This document shows positions 27,066 to 42,733 of a DNA stretch of 64,000 bases, piece by piece (position 1 is the first letter of the stretch; each line of letters starts with the position of its first letter). Below the pieces are notes generated by a model that was not told the origin of the DNA, ran no database searches, and saw only the letters and a program-made list of their open reading frames with translations. This stretch comes from an uncultured Nitrososphaerota archaeon (GTDB taxonomy: Archaea > Thermoproteota > Nitrososphaeria > Nitrososphaerales > Gagatemarchaeaceae), in contig CAWISW010000001.1 in the NCBI GenBank assembly GCA_963838925.1, positions 320,001 to 384,000 on the forward strand. The letters run 5' to 3'. Made by a program: the position numbers and the translations under genes.

Positions 27066-28013
27066 CTAGATTCCGAGCGCCGAGCGCAGGCCCTTGTACC
27101 TGTTCCTGATGGTAACCTCGGTGACGCCCGCAGCCTCTGCGACGTCCCGTTGGGTCTTGTCCTCACCTTCGAGGGTGCAGGACACGTAGAGCGCGGCCGC
27201 CGCGAGGCCCATCGGGTCCTTCCCGGCCGAGATCCGCGCCTCCTCCGCCTTCTTGAGTATCTCTAGAGCCCGCCTCTTGGTCCTCTCCGAGAGCTGCGCC
27301 CTCGACGCGATCCTCGAGACGCACTTCGTGGGGTCGACCACGGGCATCTTGATGTCCATCTCCTTCAGGAGCAGCCTGTAGCACCTGGCGATGTCCTTCT
27401 TCTTCACGTTGGAGACGTTCGCGAGGTCCTTGAGCGTCCTCGGGGTCTCCCTGTCCCTGCAGGCCGCGTACAGGGAGGCGGCGATTATCGCGGAGATGGA
27501 CCTTCCCCTCACCAGCCCCCTCTCCAGAGCCTTCCTGTAGATGTAAGCAGCCTTCTCGACAACGGCGTCGGAGACGGAGAGCTTGTCAGAGAGCCTGTCC
27601 AGCTCGCTGAAGGCCTGCCTGAGGTTCCTGTCCTGGGGCTCGTGGACCTGGCTCCTGCTGTCCCACGTCCTCAGCCTCTCCACCGTCGCCTTCATCGATC
27701 CCGAGAGAGACTTGCCGGAGGCGTCCTTGTTGACGGCTCCTATGACCGTGGCCAGGCCCATGTCGTGCATGGCTATCGAGGTCGGGATGCCGCCCCTCGA
27801 CCTGTCGTCCTTCTCCTCCTTGGAGAACGCCCTCCATTCGGGGCCCGTCTCCTCTATCTTTTCCTTTACCACGAACCCGCAGCTGCTGCAAACCAGCTCT
27901 CCCCCGGCGTTGTCCACGACCATGGGACCCTTCCCGCACCTGGGGCACTTGTCCAGCGCCTTCTGCAACCTCATCAGCCTCGAGAAATCTCTTTCAGATG
28001 ACAAGCAATACAC
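27066..28013 (-). CDS. tfb: Transcription initiation factor IIB (start may be ATG 27974)
   Basis: CPRCG...GELVCSSCG zinc ribbon, GPEWRAF, two cyclin repeats, GKDPMGLAAAALY, VTEVTIRNRY. Confidence 0.97.
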   Translation of the reverse strand: MYCLSSERDFSRLMRLQKALDKCPRCGKGPMVVDNAGGELVCSSCGFVVKEKIEETGPEWRAFSKEEKDDRSRGGIPTSIAMHDMGLATVIGAVNKDASGKSLSGSMKATVERLRTWDSRSQVHEPQDRNLRQAFSELDRLSDKLSVSDAVVEKAAYIYRKALERGLVRGRSISAIIAASLYAACRDRETPRTLKDLANVSNVKKKDIARCYRLLLKEMDIKMPVVDPTKCVSRIASRAQLSERTKRRALEILKKAEEARISAGKDPMGLAAAALYVSCTLEGEDKTQRDVAEAAGVTEVTIRNRYKGLRSALGI

Positions 28014-28136
28014 TCCGGTAAGGCGTGAGCCAAACTTGCAAATCTTTTACACCTATTTAGCTTTTGTGGAGAATTAGGCCTTCTGAGGTTCAGGTTTGCA
28101 TCCGTTTTCTCCTTGGGAGAATCGACGGCCAGTGCA

Positions 28137-29458
28137 GGTTCTGTTAACTCTTCAGCTCAGGCAGTGGGCGAGTCAACTTGCTGGCATCGACTCGGAGGAT
28201 TAGGGTCTTCCTCGTCCCGTTCCCCGTCACTGCTTCACCTGCCAGCCCTTTCTCCTCCTCTATCGTGTGCGAGCGACTTTCCTCCTCTCGCCTCTCCGAC
28301 CGAGGAGAAAGGGAACGGTCGAACCTGGACCGCCCCCTCTCGGATAGGTTCAGGGCCGCGTTCACGTCCCTGTAAATCCACTCCTTGCACTTCTGGCACC
28401 AGAGCATCCTCGCGTGCGCGACATCACCCCTTGCAGGATTGTGGAGCTTCTCCCCACACGCCGAGCACGTCGAGGATGACCCGTAGGTCTCAGACTTTGT
28501 CAGCAGAACCACAGTCAGGCCCTTCCATGCTGCCTTGTATTCGAGCATCTTCTTCGCCTTCCGGTGGGGCCACGAGTTGAGCCTGAACCTGTAGCCTGCA
28601 CCTTGCCCGTTCCCTCTTTGGTACAACCTCCTGATGTCGGTCAGGTCCTCGATAGCAAGCGCAGCCCCTTGCCTCGCCGCGTCATCGACGATATAGTTCG
28701 TGGCCGCGTGGAGGATCTGGTCGCTCCTGTGACGGGCCCTACTCCAGTACTTGCGGGCGAGATTCCTTCGTATCCTGACGTCGTTCCTCTTGAACGATCC
28801 GACTATCTCCCTGGTCGTCTGCCTCATCTTGACCAACTTCGTCATCTCGACCAAGGTGACGTTTTCTTTATCACCGAACGTGATGTTCTTCTCGTTCCTG
28901 TCCAAGCCATAGACTCTTCTTATCTCAACAGGTTCGATGTGCTTCGAATAGCAGAGCGATAGCGAGTCGGGAGTTATGGTGAGGCTCCTGACCTTCCCCT
29001 CTGAGAGCTTCCTGACCGCATATTGATTGAGCTTTATGTCGAAATACTTGTCACGTCTCAGCGGGATGAAGAGCCTCCCCTTCATTGTGATGAAGAAACC
29101 CGAGATGATACATGAAACCGGTCTCAAAGGCCTGGGATGGGCTGCTTTGATTCCTCGCTTCTCGCCTTTGTTGCGACTTTGGACGACTGCGCAGGCGCGC
29201 GTTATCGACGCGACCTTGTAACAAGAAGGAAACTCGGTGTTCCTGAGCGTCCGGTAGAATCCCTTCATCCCCTTGCGGTTCTCAATCCCATGTGCTTCGG
29301 CGTAGTTGACTGCGTCATAGGTCGCTGTTAGACATTCGTTAAGCAGACCACGTAGCTGCTCGCTGGAATGCGATTGGGTGACACACTTTGTTGCCCGCAA
29401 CAATCATCTGGGATGCAATCGTATAAACGCGCCCATGAGCCGAAGAGTTACCAGAGCC
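28137..29458 (-). mobile_element. Non-autonomous tnpB-only element with 23-bp TIRs and 8-bp TSD (copy 1)
   Basis: TIRs 28137-28159 and 29436-29458 (20/23 complementary); direct repeat CCAGTGCA at 28129-28136 and 29459-29466; no transposase inside. Confidence 0.9.
28144..29403 (-). CDS. tnpB: TnpB-family RNA-guided endonuclease
   Basis: RuvC-I VYGLDRN, RuvC-II LAIEDL, zinc ribbon SSTCSACG/WCQKC, RuvC-III RDVNAALNL; stop lies inside TIR. Confidence 0.88.
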   Translation of the reverse strand: MLRATKCVTQSHSSEQLRGLLNECLTATYDAVNYAEAHGIENRKGMKGFYRTLRNTEFPSCYKVASITRACAVVQSRNKGEKRGIKAAHPRPLRPVSCIISGFFITMKGRLFIPLRRDKYFDIKLNQYAVRKLSEGKVRSLTITPDSLSLCYSKHIEPVEIRRVYGLDRNEKNITFGDKENVTLVEMTKLVKMRQTTREIVGSFKRNDVRIRRNLARKYWSRARHRSDQILHAATNYIVDDAARQGAALAIEDLTDIRRLYQRGNGQGAGYRFRLNSWPHRKAKKMLEYKAAWKGLTVVLLTKSETYGSSSTCSACGEKLHNPARGDVAHARMLWCQKCKEWIYRDVNAALNLSERGRSRFDRSLSPRSERREEESRSHTIEEEKGLAGEAVTGNGTRKTLILRVDASKLTRPLPELKS

Positions 29459-29530
29459 CCAGTGCATCAAGCTTTTATATCGAGCCCGGCACTTTGTCGC
29501 CAGGTCGCGCTCGTGGGCTCAGAGTTGGTC

Positions 29531-30160
29531 ATGTTCGAGAACGCCCTCCAGTTCATCGGGGCGTTCGTGGCCTTTTCCATCGCCCTCGTCGCATACAAGG
29601 GTGTGCGCGAGACGAGCAGCTCCTCGATGCTCAGGCTCGCGGCTGCCTTCGTCTTCCTCGGGGCCGGGTTCGTCCTCCAGGGGCTGGACAGCGTCGGCGC
29701 GTTCGGCAGCATCCCTGGGCTCTCGACCTCCATCGACACGATAATGGTCGCCGGCATGTTCCTACAGACGGTGGGCTACTTCTTCTTGGCATTCTCCCAC
29801 GTCCTGGACGTGGTCGTCTCAAGGCGGCTGGGGCCGCTCCTCGTGCTCCTCCCGATACTCGCGGTAGGCCAGACCAGCGTGGAGACCGTCCTCCGCAGCC
29901 TGTCCTTCTACTTCATACTGTACGGGGTGCTAGAGACGGCGCTCTCGTATACAAAGTCGAGGAACCCCAACACGCTCTTCATCGCGACCGGGCTGGGCAT
30001 GCTCGCCGCCGGGTGGTGGGTCTCGCTCGCGGCACCCGACCTCGTATTGTTAACATTGTTGCAGCTTTTGATGAGAGAAGTTGGACTGATTGCGCTATTC
30101 GTCCCAGTCTTGAGATTCTCGTTCAGGAAGCCAGGAGACTTGTTGAATGCCCCAGTATAG
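29531..30160 (+). CDS. Multi-pass membrane protein (about 7 TM), possible sensor
   Basis: Hydrophobic helices throughout; overlaps start of downstream wHTH gene; TTTTATAT box at 29473. Confidence 0.7.
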   Translation: MFENALQFIGAFVAFSIALVAYKGVRETSSSSMLRLAAAFVFLGAGFVLQGLDSVGAFGSIPGLSTSIDTIMVAGMFLQTVGYFFLAFSHVLDVVVSRRLGPLLVLLPILAVGQTSVETVLRSLSFYFILYGVLETALSYTKSRNPNTLFIATGLGMLAAGWWVSLAAPDLVLLTLLQLLMREVGLIALFVPVLRFSFRKPGDLLNAPV

Positions 30161-39559: not shown

Positions 39560-40895
39560 CGGTGGACCGCCCTCGGCTTCATCCGTGAGGTAGGGCGAAT
39601 GGGCGCTTAAATCGAATTTGCAGTTTTGGGTTTCGGCCCAATTGAAGTCAGCTCTCCGGTTTCGTCTCTATCCGAACAGAAAGCAGGAGTGGAGGCTGAT
39701 AAGGATGGTCGAGGCCGGGCGGCGACTGTGGAACATTGCTCTCTGCCACAGGAGACTGCGATGGGAGCAGAAGCGACTCTCCACCTCTTACAGCCAACAG
39801 TGCTTGATTCTTACTGCAGAGAGGCGCTTAGACCCGTTCTTGAAAGAGCTGTACTCACAAGCGGGTCAAGAGATACTCAAGCGCCTCGACAGGGCATTCC
39901 AGTCGTACTTCGACGGACGGGCAGGATATCCGAAGTTCAAAAAGTTCTCCGAATCGGGGTCGTTCACGTATCCTCAGGCTTACAAAGGATCTGTAAAGCC
40001 AGACATAGTGCGGAGGAGGCTCTTCCTCTCAAAGGTGGGAAATGTCAAGGTGGTTTTCCACAGAGAACTGCCTTCCGGGAGCGCGAGGTTGAAGACCTGC
40101 ACCATTGTTAGGGAACCGAATGGCGAATGGTACGCGTCTCTGGTCTACGAGGTATACAGGGAATGGCCTCAACCGTGTAAGGCGTTTACATCGCCGGTTG
40201 GAGTGGATTTAGGACTGAAATCAGTCATAACCACAACCGATGGAATCAAGATTGCACACCCTCAGTTCCTCAGGAAATCAGAGAGGCGGCTGAAGCATCT
40301 GAATCGAGCGCTTTCCAAAACGCTGAAAGCTTCGAGGAATAGAGAAAGAGCTCGCATAAAACTTGCGATCTGCTCGTCGACCGTCACGAGACAACGGACA
40401 GATTTCAATCAAAAACTGAGCCCATCACTGGTGCGGAAGCACGATTTGATTGCCTTTGAGGACCTGAAGGTCAGGAATATGGTCAGGAACCGCGTTGTTG
40501 CGAAGTCCATTATAGATGCCGGATGGCATCAGATTCGAATCCTTACAGAATACAAGGCAACATGGGCAGGGAAGCTCGTTGTGGGGGTGCCGGCAGCCTA
40601 CTCGAGCCAGGAATGCTTCTTTTGCGGCACGCTAAACCAGGTTCCTCTAAGCGTCCGCGTCTTTGACTGCCGAGGTTGCGGCCGGACGTTGGACCGCGAC
40701 CTAAACGCGGCGTGGATAGTGCTGAAGCGAGGATTCGCTCAGGTAGGGCAGGACATGCCCGAACTCAAGCCTGGGGAGACAGGACCTCTACCCGTCCCGG
40801 CAACGGGACGCGCAAGCCCCGTCGGTGAAGCAGGAACTACACGCGGCGAGCATCGAGCCGCTGGAATCCCAAAACCTCAGGTGGGAAGGATGTCA
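39560..40895 (+). mobile_element. IS200/IS605-family tnpB-only (IS1341-like) element; left boundary approximate
   Basis: Left subterminal hairpin CGCCCTCGGCTTCATCCGTGAGGTAGGGCG; right end GGAATCCC...GGGAAGGATGTCA; lower GC than flanks; no TIR/TSD seen. Confidence 0.75.
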
Positions 40896-41309
40896 CTTTT
40901 TCGACTCGCGCACGTAGTCTTCGAAGATCGCCTTGACCTTGTCGGCGGCGAGGCCGGAGCCCTCGGTCACCCCCTTGTCGGTGACCTTGATCTTCTCCAT
41001 CACGATTATGGCCCCTATGTCCTCCCTCACCGAGACCAGCCCGGGGAACACCCTGTTGAGCCTCTCGCCCAGGGCCTTGAAGTCGAACGGCCTGTCCGTC
41101 AGCCTGATCTCGCGGACGTTGTCGCCGTTCATGGCGACCTTGAAGACGTTGGGCCCCGCCCCGACCACCTTGTCGAGGACGATGTTGAGCCTCTCGTCCG
41201 CCCCCACGAGCTGGCCGTTGTACTCCTTCCCATCGGCCGTAACAACCACGACGTGCCTGCCAAGGAAGGCGTTCAACTCCTCCCCGAACTTTCGAAACAC
41301 AACCGATGA
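39642..41309 (+). CDS. tnpB: Canonical IS605-type TnpB; frame runs past the element end antisense through the Sm gene (meaningful part ends by ~40895)
   Basis: RFRLYPN HTH, GYPKFK, VGVDLGLK, IAFEDL, SSQECFFCG...CRGCG..DRDLNAA. Confidence 0.9.
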   Translation: MKSALRFRLYPNRKQEWRLIRMVEAGRRLWNIALCHRRLRWEQKRLSTSYSQQCLILTAERRLDPFLKELYSQAGQEILKRLDRAFQSYFDGRAGYPKFKKFSESGSFTYPQAYKGSVKPDIVRRRLFLSKVGNVKVVFHRELPSGSARLKTCTIVREPNGEWYASLVYEVYREWPQPCKAFTSPVGVDLGLKSVITTTDGIKIAHPQFLRKSERRLKHLNRALSKTLKASRNRERARIKLAICSSTVTRQRTDFNQKLSPSLVRKHDLIAFEDLKVRNMVRNRVVAKSIIDAGWHQIRILTEYKATWAGKLVVGVPAAYSSQECFFCGTLNQVPLSVRVFDCRGCGRTLDRDLNAAWIVLKRGFAQVGQDMPELKPGETGPLPVPATGRASPVGEAGTTRGEHRAAGIPKPQVGRMSLFRLAHVVFEDRLDLVGGEAGALGHPLVGDLDLLHHDYGPYVLPHRDQPGEHPVEPLAQGLEVERPVRQPDLADVVAVHGDLEDVGPRPDHLVEDDVEPLVRPHELAVVLLPIGRNNHDVPAKEGVQLLPELSKHNR

Positions 41310-41312: not shown

Positions 41313-41421
41313 CCGATTCGATTCCTGAACCTCCCGAGAGGGTATATAGGAATTATTTCGGCCGGCGCTGGTAACTCCTCGGCGCATAGGCGCATATATT
41401 TGAATAACGCGAAAATGATTA

Positions 41422-42696
41422 TTGCGAGCGACAAGGTCCGTCACCCAGTCCCATTCCAGCCAGCAGCTTGCAAGCTTGCTCTCAGAGTGTCTGACGATGA
41501 CTTGCAACGCCATTCACTACGCCCAAGAACACAAGATCAAGAGCCGCAGAGGAATGAAAGGGTTCTACAGGACGCTCAAGGACGTCGAGCTGCCTTTGTG
41601 CTACAAGGTCGGGTCGATATCGCGGGCTTGCGCCGTCGTCAACAGTCGCGAAAAGAGCGAGAGGCGAGGAGTCGCGGTCGGCCACCCCAAACCTCTTCGC
41701 CCGGCCGTTTGCATCACCTCGGGGTTCTTCATCACGATGAAGGGGAGGCTCTTCATCCCGTTGAGGCGTGACAGGTATTTCGACGTCCAGCTCAATCAGT
41801 ACATAATGGACTGGCTCGCCGACAAGAAAGTGAGGAGCCTCACCATTGCTTCCGACTCGCTCTCACTCTGCTACTCGGAGGACATCCGTCCAGCCCCTGT
41901 CAGGAGGGTCTACGGCGTCGACAGGAACGAGAAGAACGTCGCCTTCGGGGACAGAGAGAAGGTCATCCTGGTCGAGATGAAGAAGATTGTCAGGGTCAGG
42001 CAGACGACGAGGGAGATAGTCGCCTCGTTCAAGAGGAACGACGTCAGGATGCGAAGGAAGCTCTTCCGCAAGTACTGGAGGAGGGCGAACCACAGGGGCG
42101 ACCAGATCCTCCACGCGGCCGCGAACTACGTCATCGACGTGGCGGCGAAAGACGGGGCCGCGCTAGCCATCGAGGACCTAAGGGGCATCAGGAAGCTGTA
42201 CCGCAGGGGGAGCGGTCAGGGACCTGACTATAGGTTCAGGCTCAACTCATGGCCGCACTGGAAGGCCAAGAAGATGCTCGAGTACAAGGCCGCTTGGAAG
42301 GGAGTGACGACGATTGCGCTCACGAGGTCTGACACCTATGGATCCTCGTCGACGTGCTCGGCGTGCGGGGAGAGGCTCCGCAGTCCTGCGAAGGATGATG
42401 TCGCGCACCGGAGGATGCTGTGGTGTCAGGCCTGCAGTAGGTGGATAGACAGGGATGTGAACGCGCCCCTGAACCTGTCCATGAGGGGGCGGTCGAGGTT
42501 TGACCGTTCCCTTCCTTCCCGGTCGGAGCGCAATGAGGAGGAGGAAAGGCGCTCGCAACAAGCAACTCCCTCTTCCATCCCGACCGTGAAGGAGGAAGGG
42601 CTGGCAGGTGAAGCGGTGACGGGGAACGGGACGACTACCCTAATCCTCCGAGTCGATGCCAGCAAGTTGACTCGACGGCGTGAGCCGAAGAGTTAA
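41422..42696 (+). CDS. tnpB: TnpB-family RNA-guided endonuclease, paralog of 28144-29403
   Basis: VYGVDRN, LAIEDL, SSTCSACG/WCQAC, DRDVNA; colinear with copy 1 over full length. Confidence 0.88.
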   Translation: MRATRSVTQSHSSQQLASLLSECLTMTCNAIHYAQEHKIKSRRGMKGFYRTLKDVELPLCYKVGSISRACAVVNSREKSERRGVAVGHPKPLRPAVCITSGFFITMKGRLFIPLRRDRYFDVQLNQYIMDWLADKKVRSLTIASDSLSLCYSEDIRPAPVRRVYGVDRNEKNVAFGDREKVILVEMKKIVRVRQTTREIVASFKRNDVRMRRKLFRKYWRRANHRGDQILHAAANYVIDVAAKDGAALAIEDLRGIRKLYRRGSGQGPDYRFRLNSWPHWKAKKMLEYKAAWKGVTTIALTRSDTYGSSSTCSACGERLRSPAKDDVAHRRMLWCQACSRWIDRDVNAPLNLSMRGRSRFDRSLPSRSERNEEEERRSQQATPSSIPTVKEEGLAGEAVTGNGTTTLILRVDASKLTRRREPKS

Positions 42697-42703
42697 CAGA
42701 ACC
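42598..42703 (+). ncRNA. Putative omegaRNA scaffold overlapping tnpB 3' end (equivalent in copy 1 at ~28137-28248, minus strand); 5' end unknown
   Basis: Near-identical between copies; stem CGAGTCGA/TTGACTCG with loop TGCCAGC complementary to upstream GCTGGCA (pseudoknot). Confidence 0.6.
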
Positions 42704-42733
42704 TTTCGGCCCGAAGTGCGAGAGCGGCGAAAG

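Follow-up and report, generated by a model that had tools for sequence, protein, structure and literature searches.

How does a tnpB gene come to lie alone between the ends of an IS6-type transposon, and what moves it? The question is raised by a stretch of 64,000 nucleotides from an uncultured archaeon of the order Nitrososphaerales (GenBank assembly GCA_963838925.1, contig CAWISW010000001.1, positions 320,001 to 384,000), which we call the window and to whose first letter all coordinates refer unless another contig is named. At 28137–29458 it holds an element of 1,322 bp, termed copy 1, in which tnpB lies between short inverted repeats. Our analyses make it likely that copy 1 is a non-autonomous IS6-type transposon whose cargo consists only of TnpB and a guide-RNA scaffold, that it is moved in trans, and that its TnpB cuts alleles in which the insertion is absent. 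What carries this reading are 23-bp ends that belong to the terminal inverted repeat (TIR) family of autonomous IS6 elements, an 8-bp target-site duplication, the TnpB fold, and a covarying RNA fold of about 130 nt at the 3' end of the gene.

Read directly from the sequence, the two ends of copy 1 are 23-bp inverted repeats that match at 20 of 23 positions and lie within an exact duplication, CCAGTGCA, and a repeat search of 27800–29800 returned the same ends as the longest inverted pair (23 nt, 87% complementary). On the right-end side, next to the 3' end of tnpB, the duplication occupies 28129–28136 and is followed by the right TIR at 28137–28159 (minus strand; GGTTCTGTTAACTCTTCAGCTCA when read inward). 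The left TIR lies at 29436–29458 (minus strand; inward GGCTCTGGTAACTCTTCGGCTCA), and beyond it the duplication recurs at 29459–29466, as seen in the sequence and in comparison with empty sites; both TIRs were found by direct reading, by a TIR scan and by the repeat search. The tnpB open reading frame (ORF) at 28144–29403 (minus strand), recognized from the ORF list, Pfam, alignment, AlphaFold and Foldseek, starts with TTG and encodes 419 amino acids (aa). It is the sole long ORF between the inverted repeats, with no transposase inside, and its stop codon TAA falls within the right TIR, 7 nt from the end of the element. A first-pass annotation had described the locus as 23-bp repeats matching at 20 of 23 positions, an exact 8-bp duplication and tnpB as the only gene, and the direct reading, the repeat search and the ORF list bear out each of these points. 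The ends of IS257 and IS26 read GGTTCTGTT and GGCACTGTT. With their short length, GG tips and CTGTT motif, the TIRs of copy 1 (GGTTCTGTTAAC and GGCTCTGGTAAC) resemble the IS6 family consensus, which passages of a review of the family give as GG..CTGTT tips together with an 8-bp repeat (PMC7986276). As copy 1 encodes no DDE_Tnp_IS240 transposase, it qualifies for the IS6 family only as a non-autonomous relative.

The element is not alone in its genome. The TIR consensus has four matches in the window against 0.18 expected, a number reached in none of 100 shuffles, and all four belong to the termini of copy 1 and of another copy, copy 2, which with its duplication spans 41356–42711 (plus strand). 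The element proper, 41364–42703, has its own exact 8-bp duplication, TTTCGGCC, at 41356–41363 and 42704–42711; its left TIR starts at 41364, its tnpB occupies 41422–42696, and its right TIR extends to 42703. A third copy, with TAAGAAGG on either side, lies on another contig of the same genome (C2:422318–423654), and TIRs with an exact 8-bp duplication are thus found in all three copies of this genome. In each of the three, the same three positions distinguish the left from the right TIR. The mutual identity of the copies is 79–84%, yet every duplication is perfect, and the insertions therefore look younger than the divergence of the copies, which speaks for separate arrivals rather than for one local burst. 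In addition, a solo sequence resembling a TIR tip, GGTTCTGTTAACTTAGAGAG, is present at C3:382558 (plus strand); no partner was found in its vicinity. We also noticed, at 39618–41309 (plus strand) and thus immediately upstream of copy 2, a classical TnpB with the Pfam domains OrfB_IS605, TNB and HTH_OrfB_IS605, whose 563-aa ORF exceeds normal TnpB length.

Empty alleles carrying a single 8-mer had been named as a check on the insertion, and they were found. We searched for the region around copy 1 in 23 genomes of the same genus, and seven of the nine loci that were aligned (L036, L038, L039, L040, L041, L042 and L044) have an empty site with joined flanks, in which one 8-mer ending in GTGCA is followed by TCAAGCTTTTATAT; at L040 the site reads GCAGTGCA, with 7/8 identity to the 8-mer of the window. 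A clean junction was not obtained for the other two aligned loci, L037 and L043. The 8-mer duplication of copy 1 arises on insertion.

Candidates for the moving enzyme are encoded elsewhere in the same genome (G000), in which a DDE-domain search detected four IS6-type DDE genes. Three of them are part of complete elements of 1,983, 2,384 and 2,774 bp (C2:509147–511129, C3:179310–181693 and C3:395264–398037) that have GGTTCTGTTC... ends and exact 8-bp duplications; a transposase gene of the first of these lies at C2:509159–510310. The 383-aa transposase matches Pfam DDE_Tnp_IS240 with 61.9 bits (cut-off 27), its best insertion sequence model is NCBIfam IS6 with 124.8 bits (cut-off 125), and it has a zinc-binding domain at the N-terminus. 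Homologues occur in 92 of the 201 genomes sampled from the order, a tally that counts one unpublished genome (G108). Autonomous elements elsewhere in the order are 2–5.5 kb long, with ends that include GGTTCTGTTAACTTG..., GGTTCTGTCAAGTCTTCG... and GGTTCTGTAGCATCTTCGGCTCAT; ends beginning GGTTCTGTYAAS... together with an 8/8 duplication were found at 18 of 32 loci (and at one more with 7/8), and at 10 of 13 loci of a second set. The closest TIR match within one genome was seen in G144, where 17 of 18 positions agree between an autonomous element (L326) and two tnpB elements (L107, L108). In the genome of the window the match is weaker; by eye, the IS6a TIR and the tnpB TIR agree at about 22 of 25 positions if two single-base gaps are allowed. 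Autonomous elements and the long class of tnpB elements alike repeat the core of the TIR subterminally, some 30 nt inward from either end. Across the order, the autonomous elements and the tnpB elements have the same TIR family. In the first sample, the transposase is present in 21 of 32 TnpB-bearing genomes (Fisher p 0.019). The autonomous elements that share the TIR family, and the empty sites, thus support the idea of the annotation that a non-autonomous tnpB element with IS6-type ends is mobilized in trans. As a side observation, the autonomous IS6-type elements (including L045–L074 and L322–L334) are unusually long and have passenger genes beside the transposase of about 380 aa with its zinc finger and DDE domain; of the passengers in this genome, one matches Pfam Proteasome subunit (4e-07) and another has no Pfam match.

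The cargo itself has the features of an RNA-guided nuclease. TnpB of copy 1 matches Pfam Cas12f1-like_TNB (PF07282, zinc ribbon; 8.9e-15), with no match to Pfam OrfB_IS605, and its sequence aligns weakly with TnpB and Cas12f chains of solved structure over RuvC II and III. That all three acidic RuvC residues are present had been noted before, and D168, E252 and D346 proved to be invariant in an alignment of 16 sequences (A2). An AlphaFold model computed from this alignment has a mean pLDDT of 81.7, and its top Foldseek matches, onto which it superposes along its whole length, are Cas12f and TnpB structures at TM 0.56–0.64, among them AsCas12f (8j12, 2.1e-14) and ISDra2 TnpB (8h1j, 6.9e-13). 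The protein thus retains the RuvC triad and the zinc ribbon and, according to the model, the Cas12f/TnpB fold. Its C-terminal tail (residues ~367–419; window 28144–28340, minus strand) overlaps the RNA scaffold described below; in the model, residues 367–398 have low confidence, which fits the nucleotide-level conservation of this 3' region, and the peptide ILRVDASKL is predicted as a strand and a helix with moderate confidence.

The last 130–170 nt are conserved at the nucleotide level even where the TnpBs are only about 30% identical, and this explains the conservation of the C-terminal ILRVDASKL peptide. In copy 1, the region that resembles the scaffold of a guide RNA (omegaRNA) lies over the 3' end of tnpB at 28137–28273 (minus strand), as judged from an alignment (A4), RNAalifold and pair counts. 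A4 has 32 rows, namely the two window copies and, out of 53 elements with a defined core and end, 30 of the short class; it leaves out 23 elements, namely the long class with its extra hairpin and three other short ones. RNAalifold predicts five helices with 21 pairs, 14 of them with changes on both sides. When counted over A4, 93% of the cells are paired, compared with 31–45% when the partners are slid by 1–3 columns, and the covariation score is 0.608 versus at most 0.135 for the slid partners, with none of 500 shuffles reaching the observed score; as the structure was derived from A4 itself, the slid control is somewhat favourable to it. Several G–U pairs occur on the sense strand. In the last helix, helix 5, GTTGAC (just after GAUGCCAGCAAG) pairs with positions 7–12 of the right TIR (GTTAAC), with 88% of the cells paired and changes on both sides in five of six pairs. 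The terminal six bases, AGAACC, do not vary and take no part in pairing, and in many diverged copies the ORF stops at the TAA of GTTAACAGAACC, 7 nt before the terminus of the element. A variable stretch of 4–45 nt separates the TIR from the conserved RNA core; long-class elements (L007, L013, L020, L077, L098 and others) have the subterminal repeat and, in the interval between core and right TIR, the additional hairpin. On the evidence of covariation, the right TIR is part of the predicted guide-RNA scaffold. This argues against a recent capture, as does the clade-wide IS6-type terminus, and the capture by IS6-type ends that the annotation had proposed is therefore not a recent one of a single gene. 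An Rfam search of the guide-RNA region matched no family above threshold; the C/D-box sRNA family sR43 at 28155–28217 (minus strand) scored 19.6 bits against a gathering score of 45 (E 0.05) and was taken as chance. A pseudoknot-like CGAGTC/GACTCG pairing in copies 1 and 2 was dropped as it is not kept in other members.

How general the arrangement is follows from an order-wide survey. TnpB homologues occur in 32 of 201 genomes at E≤1e-20 and, by profile, in 83 of 401 at E≤1e-40, the latter tally counting an unpublished genome, G283, whose locus was left out of the screen. The screen started from 280 loci, of which 183 had a TnpB match and 157 an RNA core with a YAGAACC-like right terminus, and these represent 142 distinct copies. 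The right terminus is exactly YAGAACC in 105 of the 142, where the chance of an exact match is estimated at about 1.5% per locus. Because a scan that demanded an exact duplication missed most elements, relaxed criteria were used for the order-wide counts: under a rule that asks for a duplication of at least 7/8 and a TIR tip of at least 6/12, 22 distinct copies have an 8/8 and 7 a 7/8 duplication; a further 24 have a TIR pair only. As we estimate that this rule could give about three false positives in 142 loci, we also counted a strict set, with a TIR of 15/22 or better and a duplication of 7/8 or better, which comprises 27 elements of 1231–1370 bp. Left and right TIRs are identical (22/22) in many elements. 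An IS6-type terminus is thus a property of the whole sampled TnpB clade of the order, whose members are 27–100% identical. Scanning genome contigs with a 17-letter RNA-core pattern gave 117 stretches, 21 of them with a TnpB match, and added few elements (several hundred chance matches are estimated for this pattern); a scan of metagenome contigs with the copy 1 protein gave one locus. The RNA core together with TnpB also occurs in records named Thaumarchaeota, Nitrososphaerota, Nitrosotenuis, Nitrososphaera, Nitrosotalea and Gagatemarchaeum, and the hosts thus appear to be members of the phylum of ammonia-oxidizing archaea.

From these parts, the following course of events can be envisaged. 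An IS6-family DDE transposase with an N-terminal zinc finger, encoded elsewhere, would bind the ends of the element, and movement would follow the replicative, cointegrate-forming route of the IS6 family, by which the donor copy would never be excised. Transcripts would cross the right TIR into the flank, and the guide would consist of the 8-bp duplication and the next ~8–12 nt; in copy 1, CCAGTGCA at 28129–28136, read on the minus strand, would supply the first 8 nt of the putative guide, which it would encode together with the flank beyond it (28113–28128, minus strand). TnpB could then cut alleles that still lack the insertion, given a T-rich motif (TT at −3,−2) just 5' of the 8-mer, and repair from the filled copy would spread or keep the insertion. 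With a guide made of the duplication and the downstream flank, the target in the empty allele is preceded by the bases of the left flank, and any target-adjacent motif must lie there. The filled site would not be a target, since at the right end the DNA that encodes the guide is invariably preceded by AACC, and the match to the guide at the left junction would be limited to 8 nt. In copy 1, the place expected for the motif is 29467–29480 (minus strand), 5' of the left-side duplication in tnpB orientation; it reads ATATAAAAGCTTGA, contains a TATA-like box, and its sequence is already present at the empty sites.

The flanks of the tnpB elements are indeed asymmetric. Among the 29 elements whose duplication matches at 7/8 or better, read in tnpB orientation, the left flank has T at −3 in 22 and T at −2 in 23, and TT at both positions in 19 of 29, compared with 4 of 29 right flanks (p 1.2e-4) and, for the autonomous elements, 7 of 38 flanks (p 1.3e-4). 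The strict set has TT in 17 of 27 left and 4 of 27 right flanks. TT may thus be a candidate target-adjacent motif that became enriched by TnpB-driven copying into empty alleles, and such repair-driven spread would explain why, among surviving insertions, the motif is on the left side only. There is a second signal in the same flank, as a TATA-like box lies about 5–14 nt outside the 8-bp duplication in autonomous elements (L045–L074) as well as in tnpB elements, in the window at 29467–29480 and 41342–41355. It is found on either side of autonomous elements (at −14..−5 in 11/19 left and 12/19 right flanks) and mostly on the left of tnpB elements (19/29 left, 7/29 right). This suggests an insertion at a fixed distance from archaeal promoters.

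The second signal leads to an explanation of the flank asymmetry that we regard as possible, with some doubt, in which the left-flank motif is no target-adjacent motif of TnpB. Instead, the IS6-type transposase or selection would place the elements just upstream of archaeal BRE/TATA promoters, and their orientation, in which tnpB is directed away from the adjacent gene, would be fixed since transcripts leaving the element at its right end would interfere with that gene. In line with this, the autonomous elements are TATA-flanked as well, the motif pre-exists at the empty sites, and copies 1 and 2 lie, as read by eye, upstream of the promoters of divergent genes for a membrane protein and an Sm-like protein. 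Against it, where no TATA-like box is present TT occurs in 6 of 10 tnpB left flanks versus 0 of 15 autonomous flanks (the latter derived from the totals), there is no side bias in the autonomous elements, and the position of the signal is exactly that predicted by the TnpB model.

The reading of copy 1 as a trans-mobilized IS6-type element whose TnpB cuts empty alleles also has to be weighed against a number of observations that speak against it. Concerning the flanks, TT is only weakly enriched when the TATA-flanked sites are taken alone (13/19 versus 7/23, p 0.029), and copy 1 itself reads TTGA and hence lacks TT at −3,−2. Concerning the ends, 89 of the 142 distinct copies have no detectable left end. 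Of the TIRs and duplications in other copies of the clade, on which the annotation had made its proposal depend, the right terminus is found far more often than the left end, which only 53 of 142 keep in detectable form, and than the duplication, which is found at 7/8 or better in 29. Concerning the partner, the search for an IS6 transposase gene with the same TIRs, as called for by the annotation, found a shared TIR family at the level of the order, but in this genome autonomous and tnpB TIRs are fully identical over the first 9 nt only. A TnpB homologue was found in none of 45 autonomous loci, and a transposase in none of the 280 screened loci (183 with TnpB), many of which have flanks of only 0.7–2 kb. 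Furthermore, 11 of the 32 TnpB-bearing genomes have no transposase at E≤1e-20, and a Pfam search of 10 of these 11 detected the domain in only three; these genomes are 80–99% complete. Identity between copies of one genome reaches 91% at most, and nothing thus points to very recent movement. Finally, NCBIfam guided_TnpB scores 75.1 bits with the copy 1 protein, under its cut-off of 100.

It is improbable, in our judgement, that the guide is not derived from the flank. The RNA would then end within the element, the TIR or the variable stretch would be a fixed guide, and TnpB would target transposon ends or other fixed sites, or act as a regulator. In favour of this are the variable stretch of 4–45 nt between the RNA core and the TIR and the three constant differences between left and right TIRs in the copies of this genome. 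In many elements, however, left and right TIRs are identical, and helix 5 ties the TIR to the scaffold by compensatory changes; the nuclease residues are intact, and the TT asymmetry lies beyond the duplication, as predicted for a guide that is read from the flank.

Still harder to defend is a nested composite, in which an IS1341-type tnpB element with its own IS200/IS605-type ends would sit inside an IS6-derived miniature element. Miniature elements derived from IS6 do exist according to the portion of the review that we draw on (PMC7986276), and a solo TIR-like sequence lies at C3:382558. But the ORF ends inside the right TIR, 7 nt short of the terminus of the element, and leaves no room for inner ends; the last RNA helix uses the TIR, which itself argues against nesting, and the arrangement is clade-wide, with RNA and TIR co-varying. 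An ordinary IS200/IS605 tnpB-only element with inverted ends and a direct repeat by chance, for which only the gene family speaks, is refuted by the four TIR matches against 0.18 expected, the exact 8-bp duplications in 22 distinct elements and the empty sites.

How does the non-autonomous IS6-type element with its TnpB cargo compare with known systems? With the IS6/IS26 family (IS26, IS257 and archaeal members) it has in common the GG..CTGTT starts of the ends, the 8-bp duplication and a partner transposase with DDE_Tnp_IS240. It differs in that copy 1 carries tnpB and a guide RNA and no transposase gene, and in that the partner transposases, 376–400 aa long and with an N-terminal zinc finger, lie in passenger-carrying elements of 2–5.5 kb; the text of the IS6 review on which we rely describes elements of about 800 bp, with one passenger-carrying member and two miniature elements, and in that text TnpB is not mentioned (PMC7986276). 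Six DDE-associated TnpB branches, DDE-1 to DDE-6, all with inverted terminal repeats, have been described, as have solo TnpBs between nearly identical ends for which movement in trans was proposed (Altae-Tran et al., 2023; PMC10691335, in the part considered here). The elements studied here resemble these branches in the location of TnpB within inverted terminal repeats, with its 3' end near the transposon end, and in solo TnpBs that have the same ends and are thought to move in trans; unlike there, tnpB and transposase are never found in one element, and IS6 is replicative and not cut-and-paste. The IS1341 group of the IS200/IS605 elements is similar in size (~1.3 kb), with tnpB as sole gene and a guide RNA over the 3' end of the gene that reaches the right end, but it has no TIR and no duplication, its ends are hairpins and its target motif abuts the left end, whereas the tnpB elements here have TIRs and an 8-bp duplication by which the candidate motif is set off from the left end. 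The closest parallel to the shared TIR and RNA helix is Fanzor1 in eukaryotic DDE transposons, a TnpB homologue that is carried as cargo between TIRs and target-site duplications, often in non-autonomous elements, and in which, according to the portion of the source used here, TIR and target-site duplication belong to the guide-RNA scaffold (PMC10711439). Here the host is an archaeon and the sequence of the 8-bp duplication varies; therefore the duplication can serve neither as scaffold nor as motif, and its place would have to be within the guide.

The novelty that the annotation had expected thus needs to be narrowed. DDE-linked TnpBs with inverted ends and trans-mobilized solo copies have been known since 2023, and it is the transposon family that seems to be new: the families named for TnpB are IS630 in the relevant text of PMC10691335 and ISL2, IS630 and IS1031 in that of a 2026 review (PMC13565253), and IS6 is not named in either of these texts. 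A full-text literature search for a link between IS6 and TnpB found no paper describing it. The kind of system is thus known, if only recently, and the IS6 partnership appears to extend it to a further family of transposons. So far undescribed, it appears, are this partnership, its trans-only relation, the shared TIR and RNA helix in a prokaryote, and the flank asymmetry.

As a more far-reaching model, which we put forward tentatively and with considerable reservation, this archaeal clade of TnpB and guide RNA may live solely as a passenger of a never-excising, replicative IS6-type transposon. The right TIR would be both the site of the transposase and the last helix of the RNA, the guide would start with the variable 8-bp duplication, TT in the left flank would mark insertions that TnpB can drive into empty alleles, and the transposase would set autonomous and tnpB elements alike at a constant spacing from archaeal TATA boxes. 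IS200/IS605 and IS607 elements excise without a scar, and in the current view TnpB helps them to survive this by cutting the emptied site, for whose repair a filled copy is the template. In contrast, the donor of an IS6-type element stays in place while the element is copied, and a long-lived, clade-wide partnership with TnpB therefore raises the question of what use TnpB is without excision; in the part of the 2026 review that we use, elements that never excise are argued to gain little from such a nuclease (PMC13565253). If the model is true, the benefit of TnpB to the transposon would be independent of excision. The element would also be a prokaryotic case in which the probable binding site of a transposase and a guide-RNA helix are the same co-varying bases, as so far described for eukaryotic Fanzor1, and with an element of 1.3 kb, a transposase of about 380 aa and a defined RNA fold the system is small and tractable. 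Since an association in trans only is invisible to surveys of gene neighbourhoods, other "solo" TnpBs may have similar hidden partnerships.

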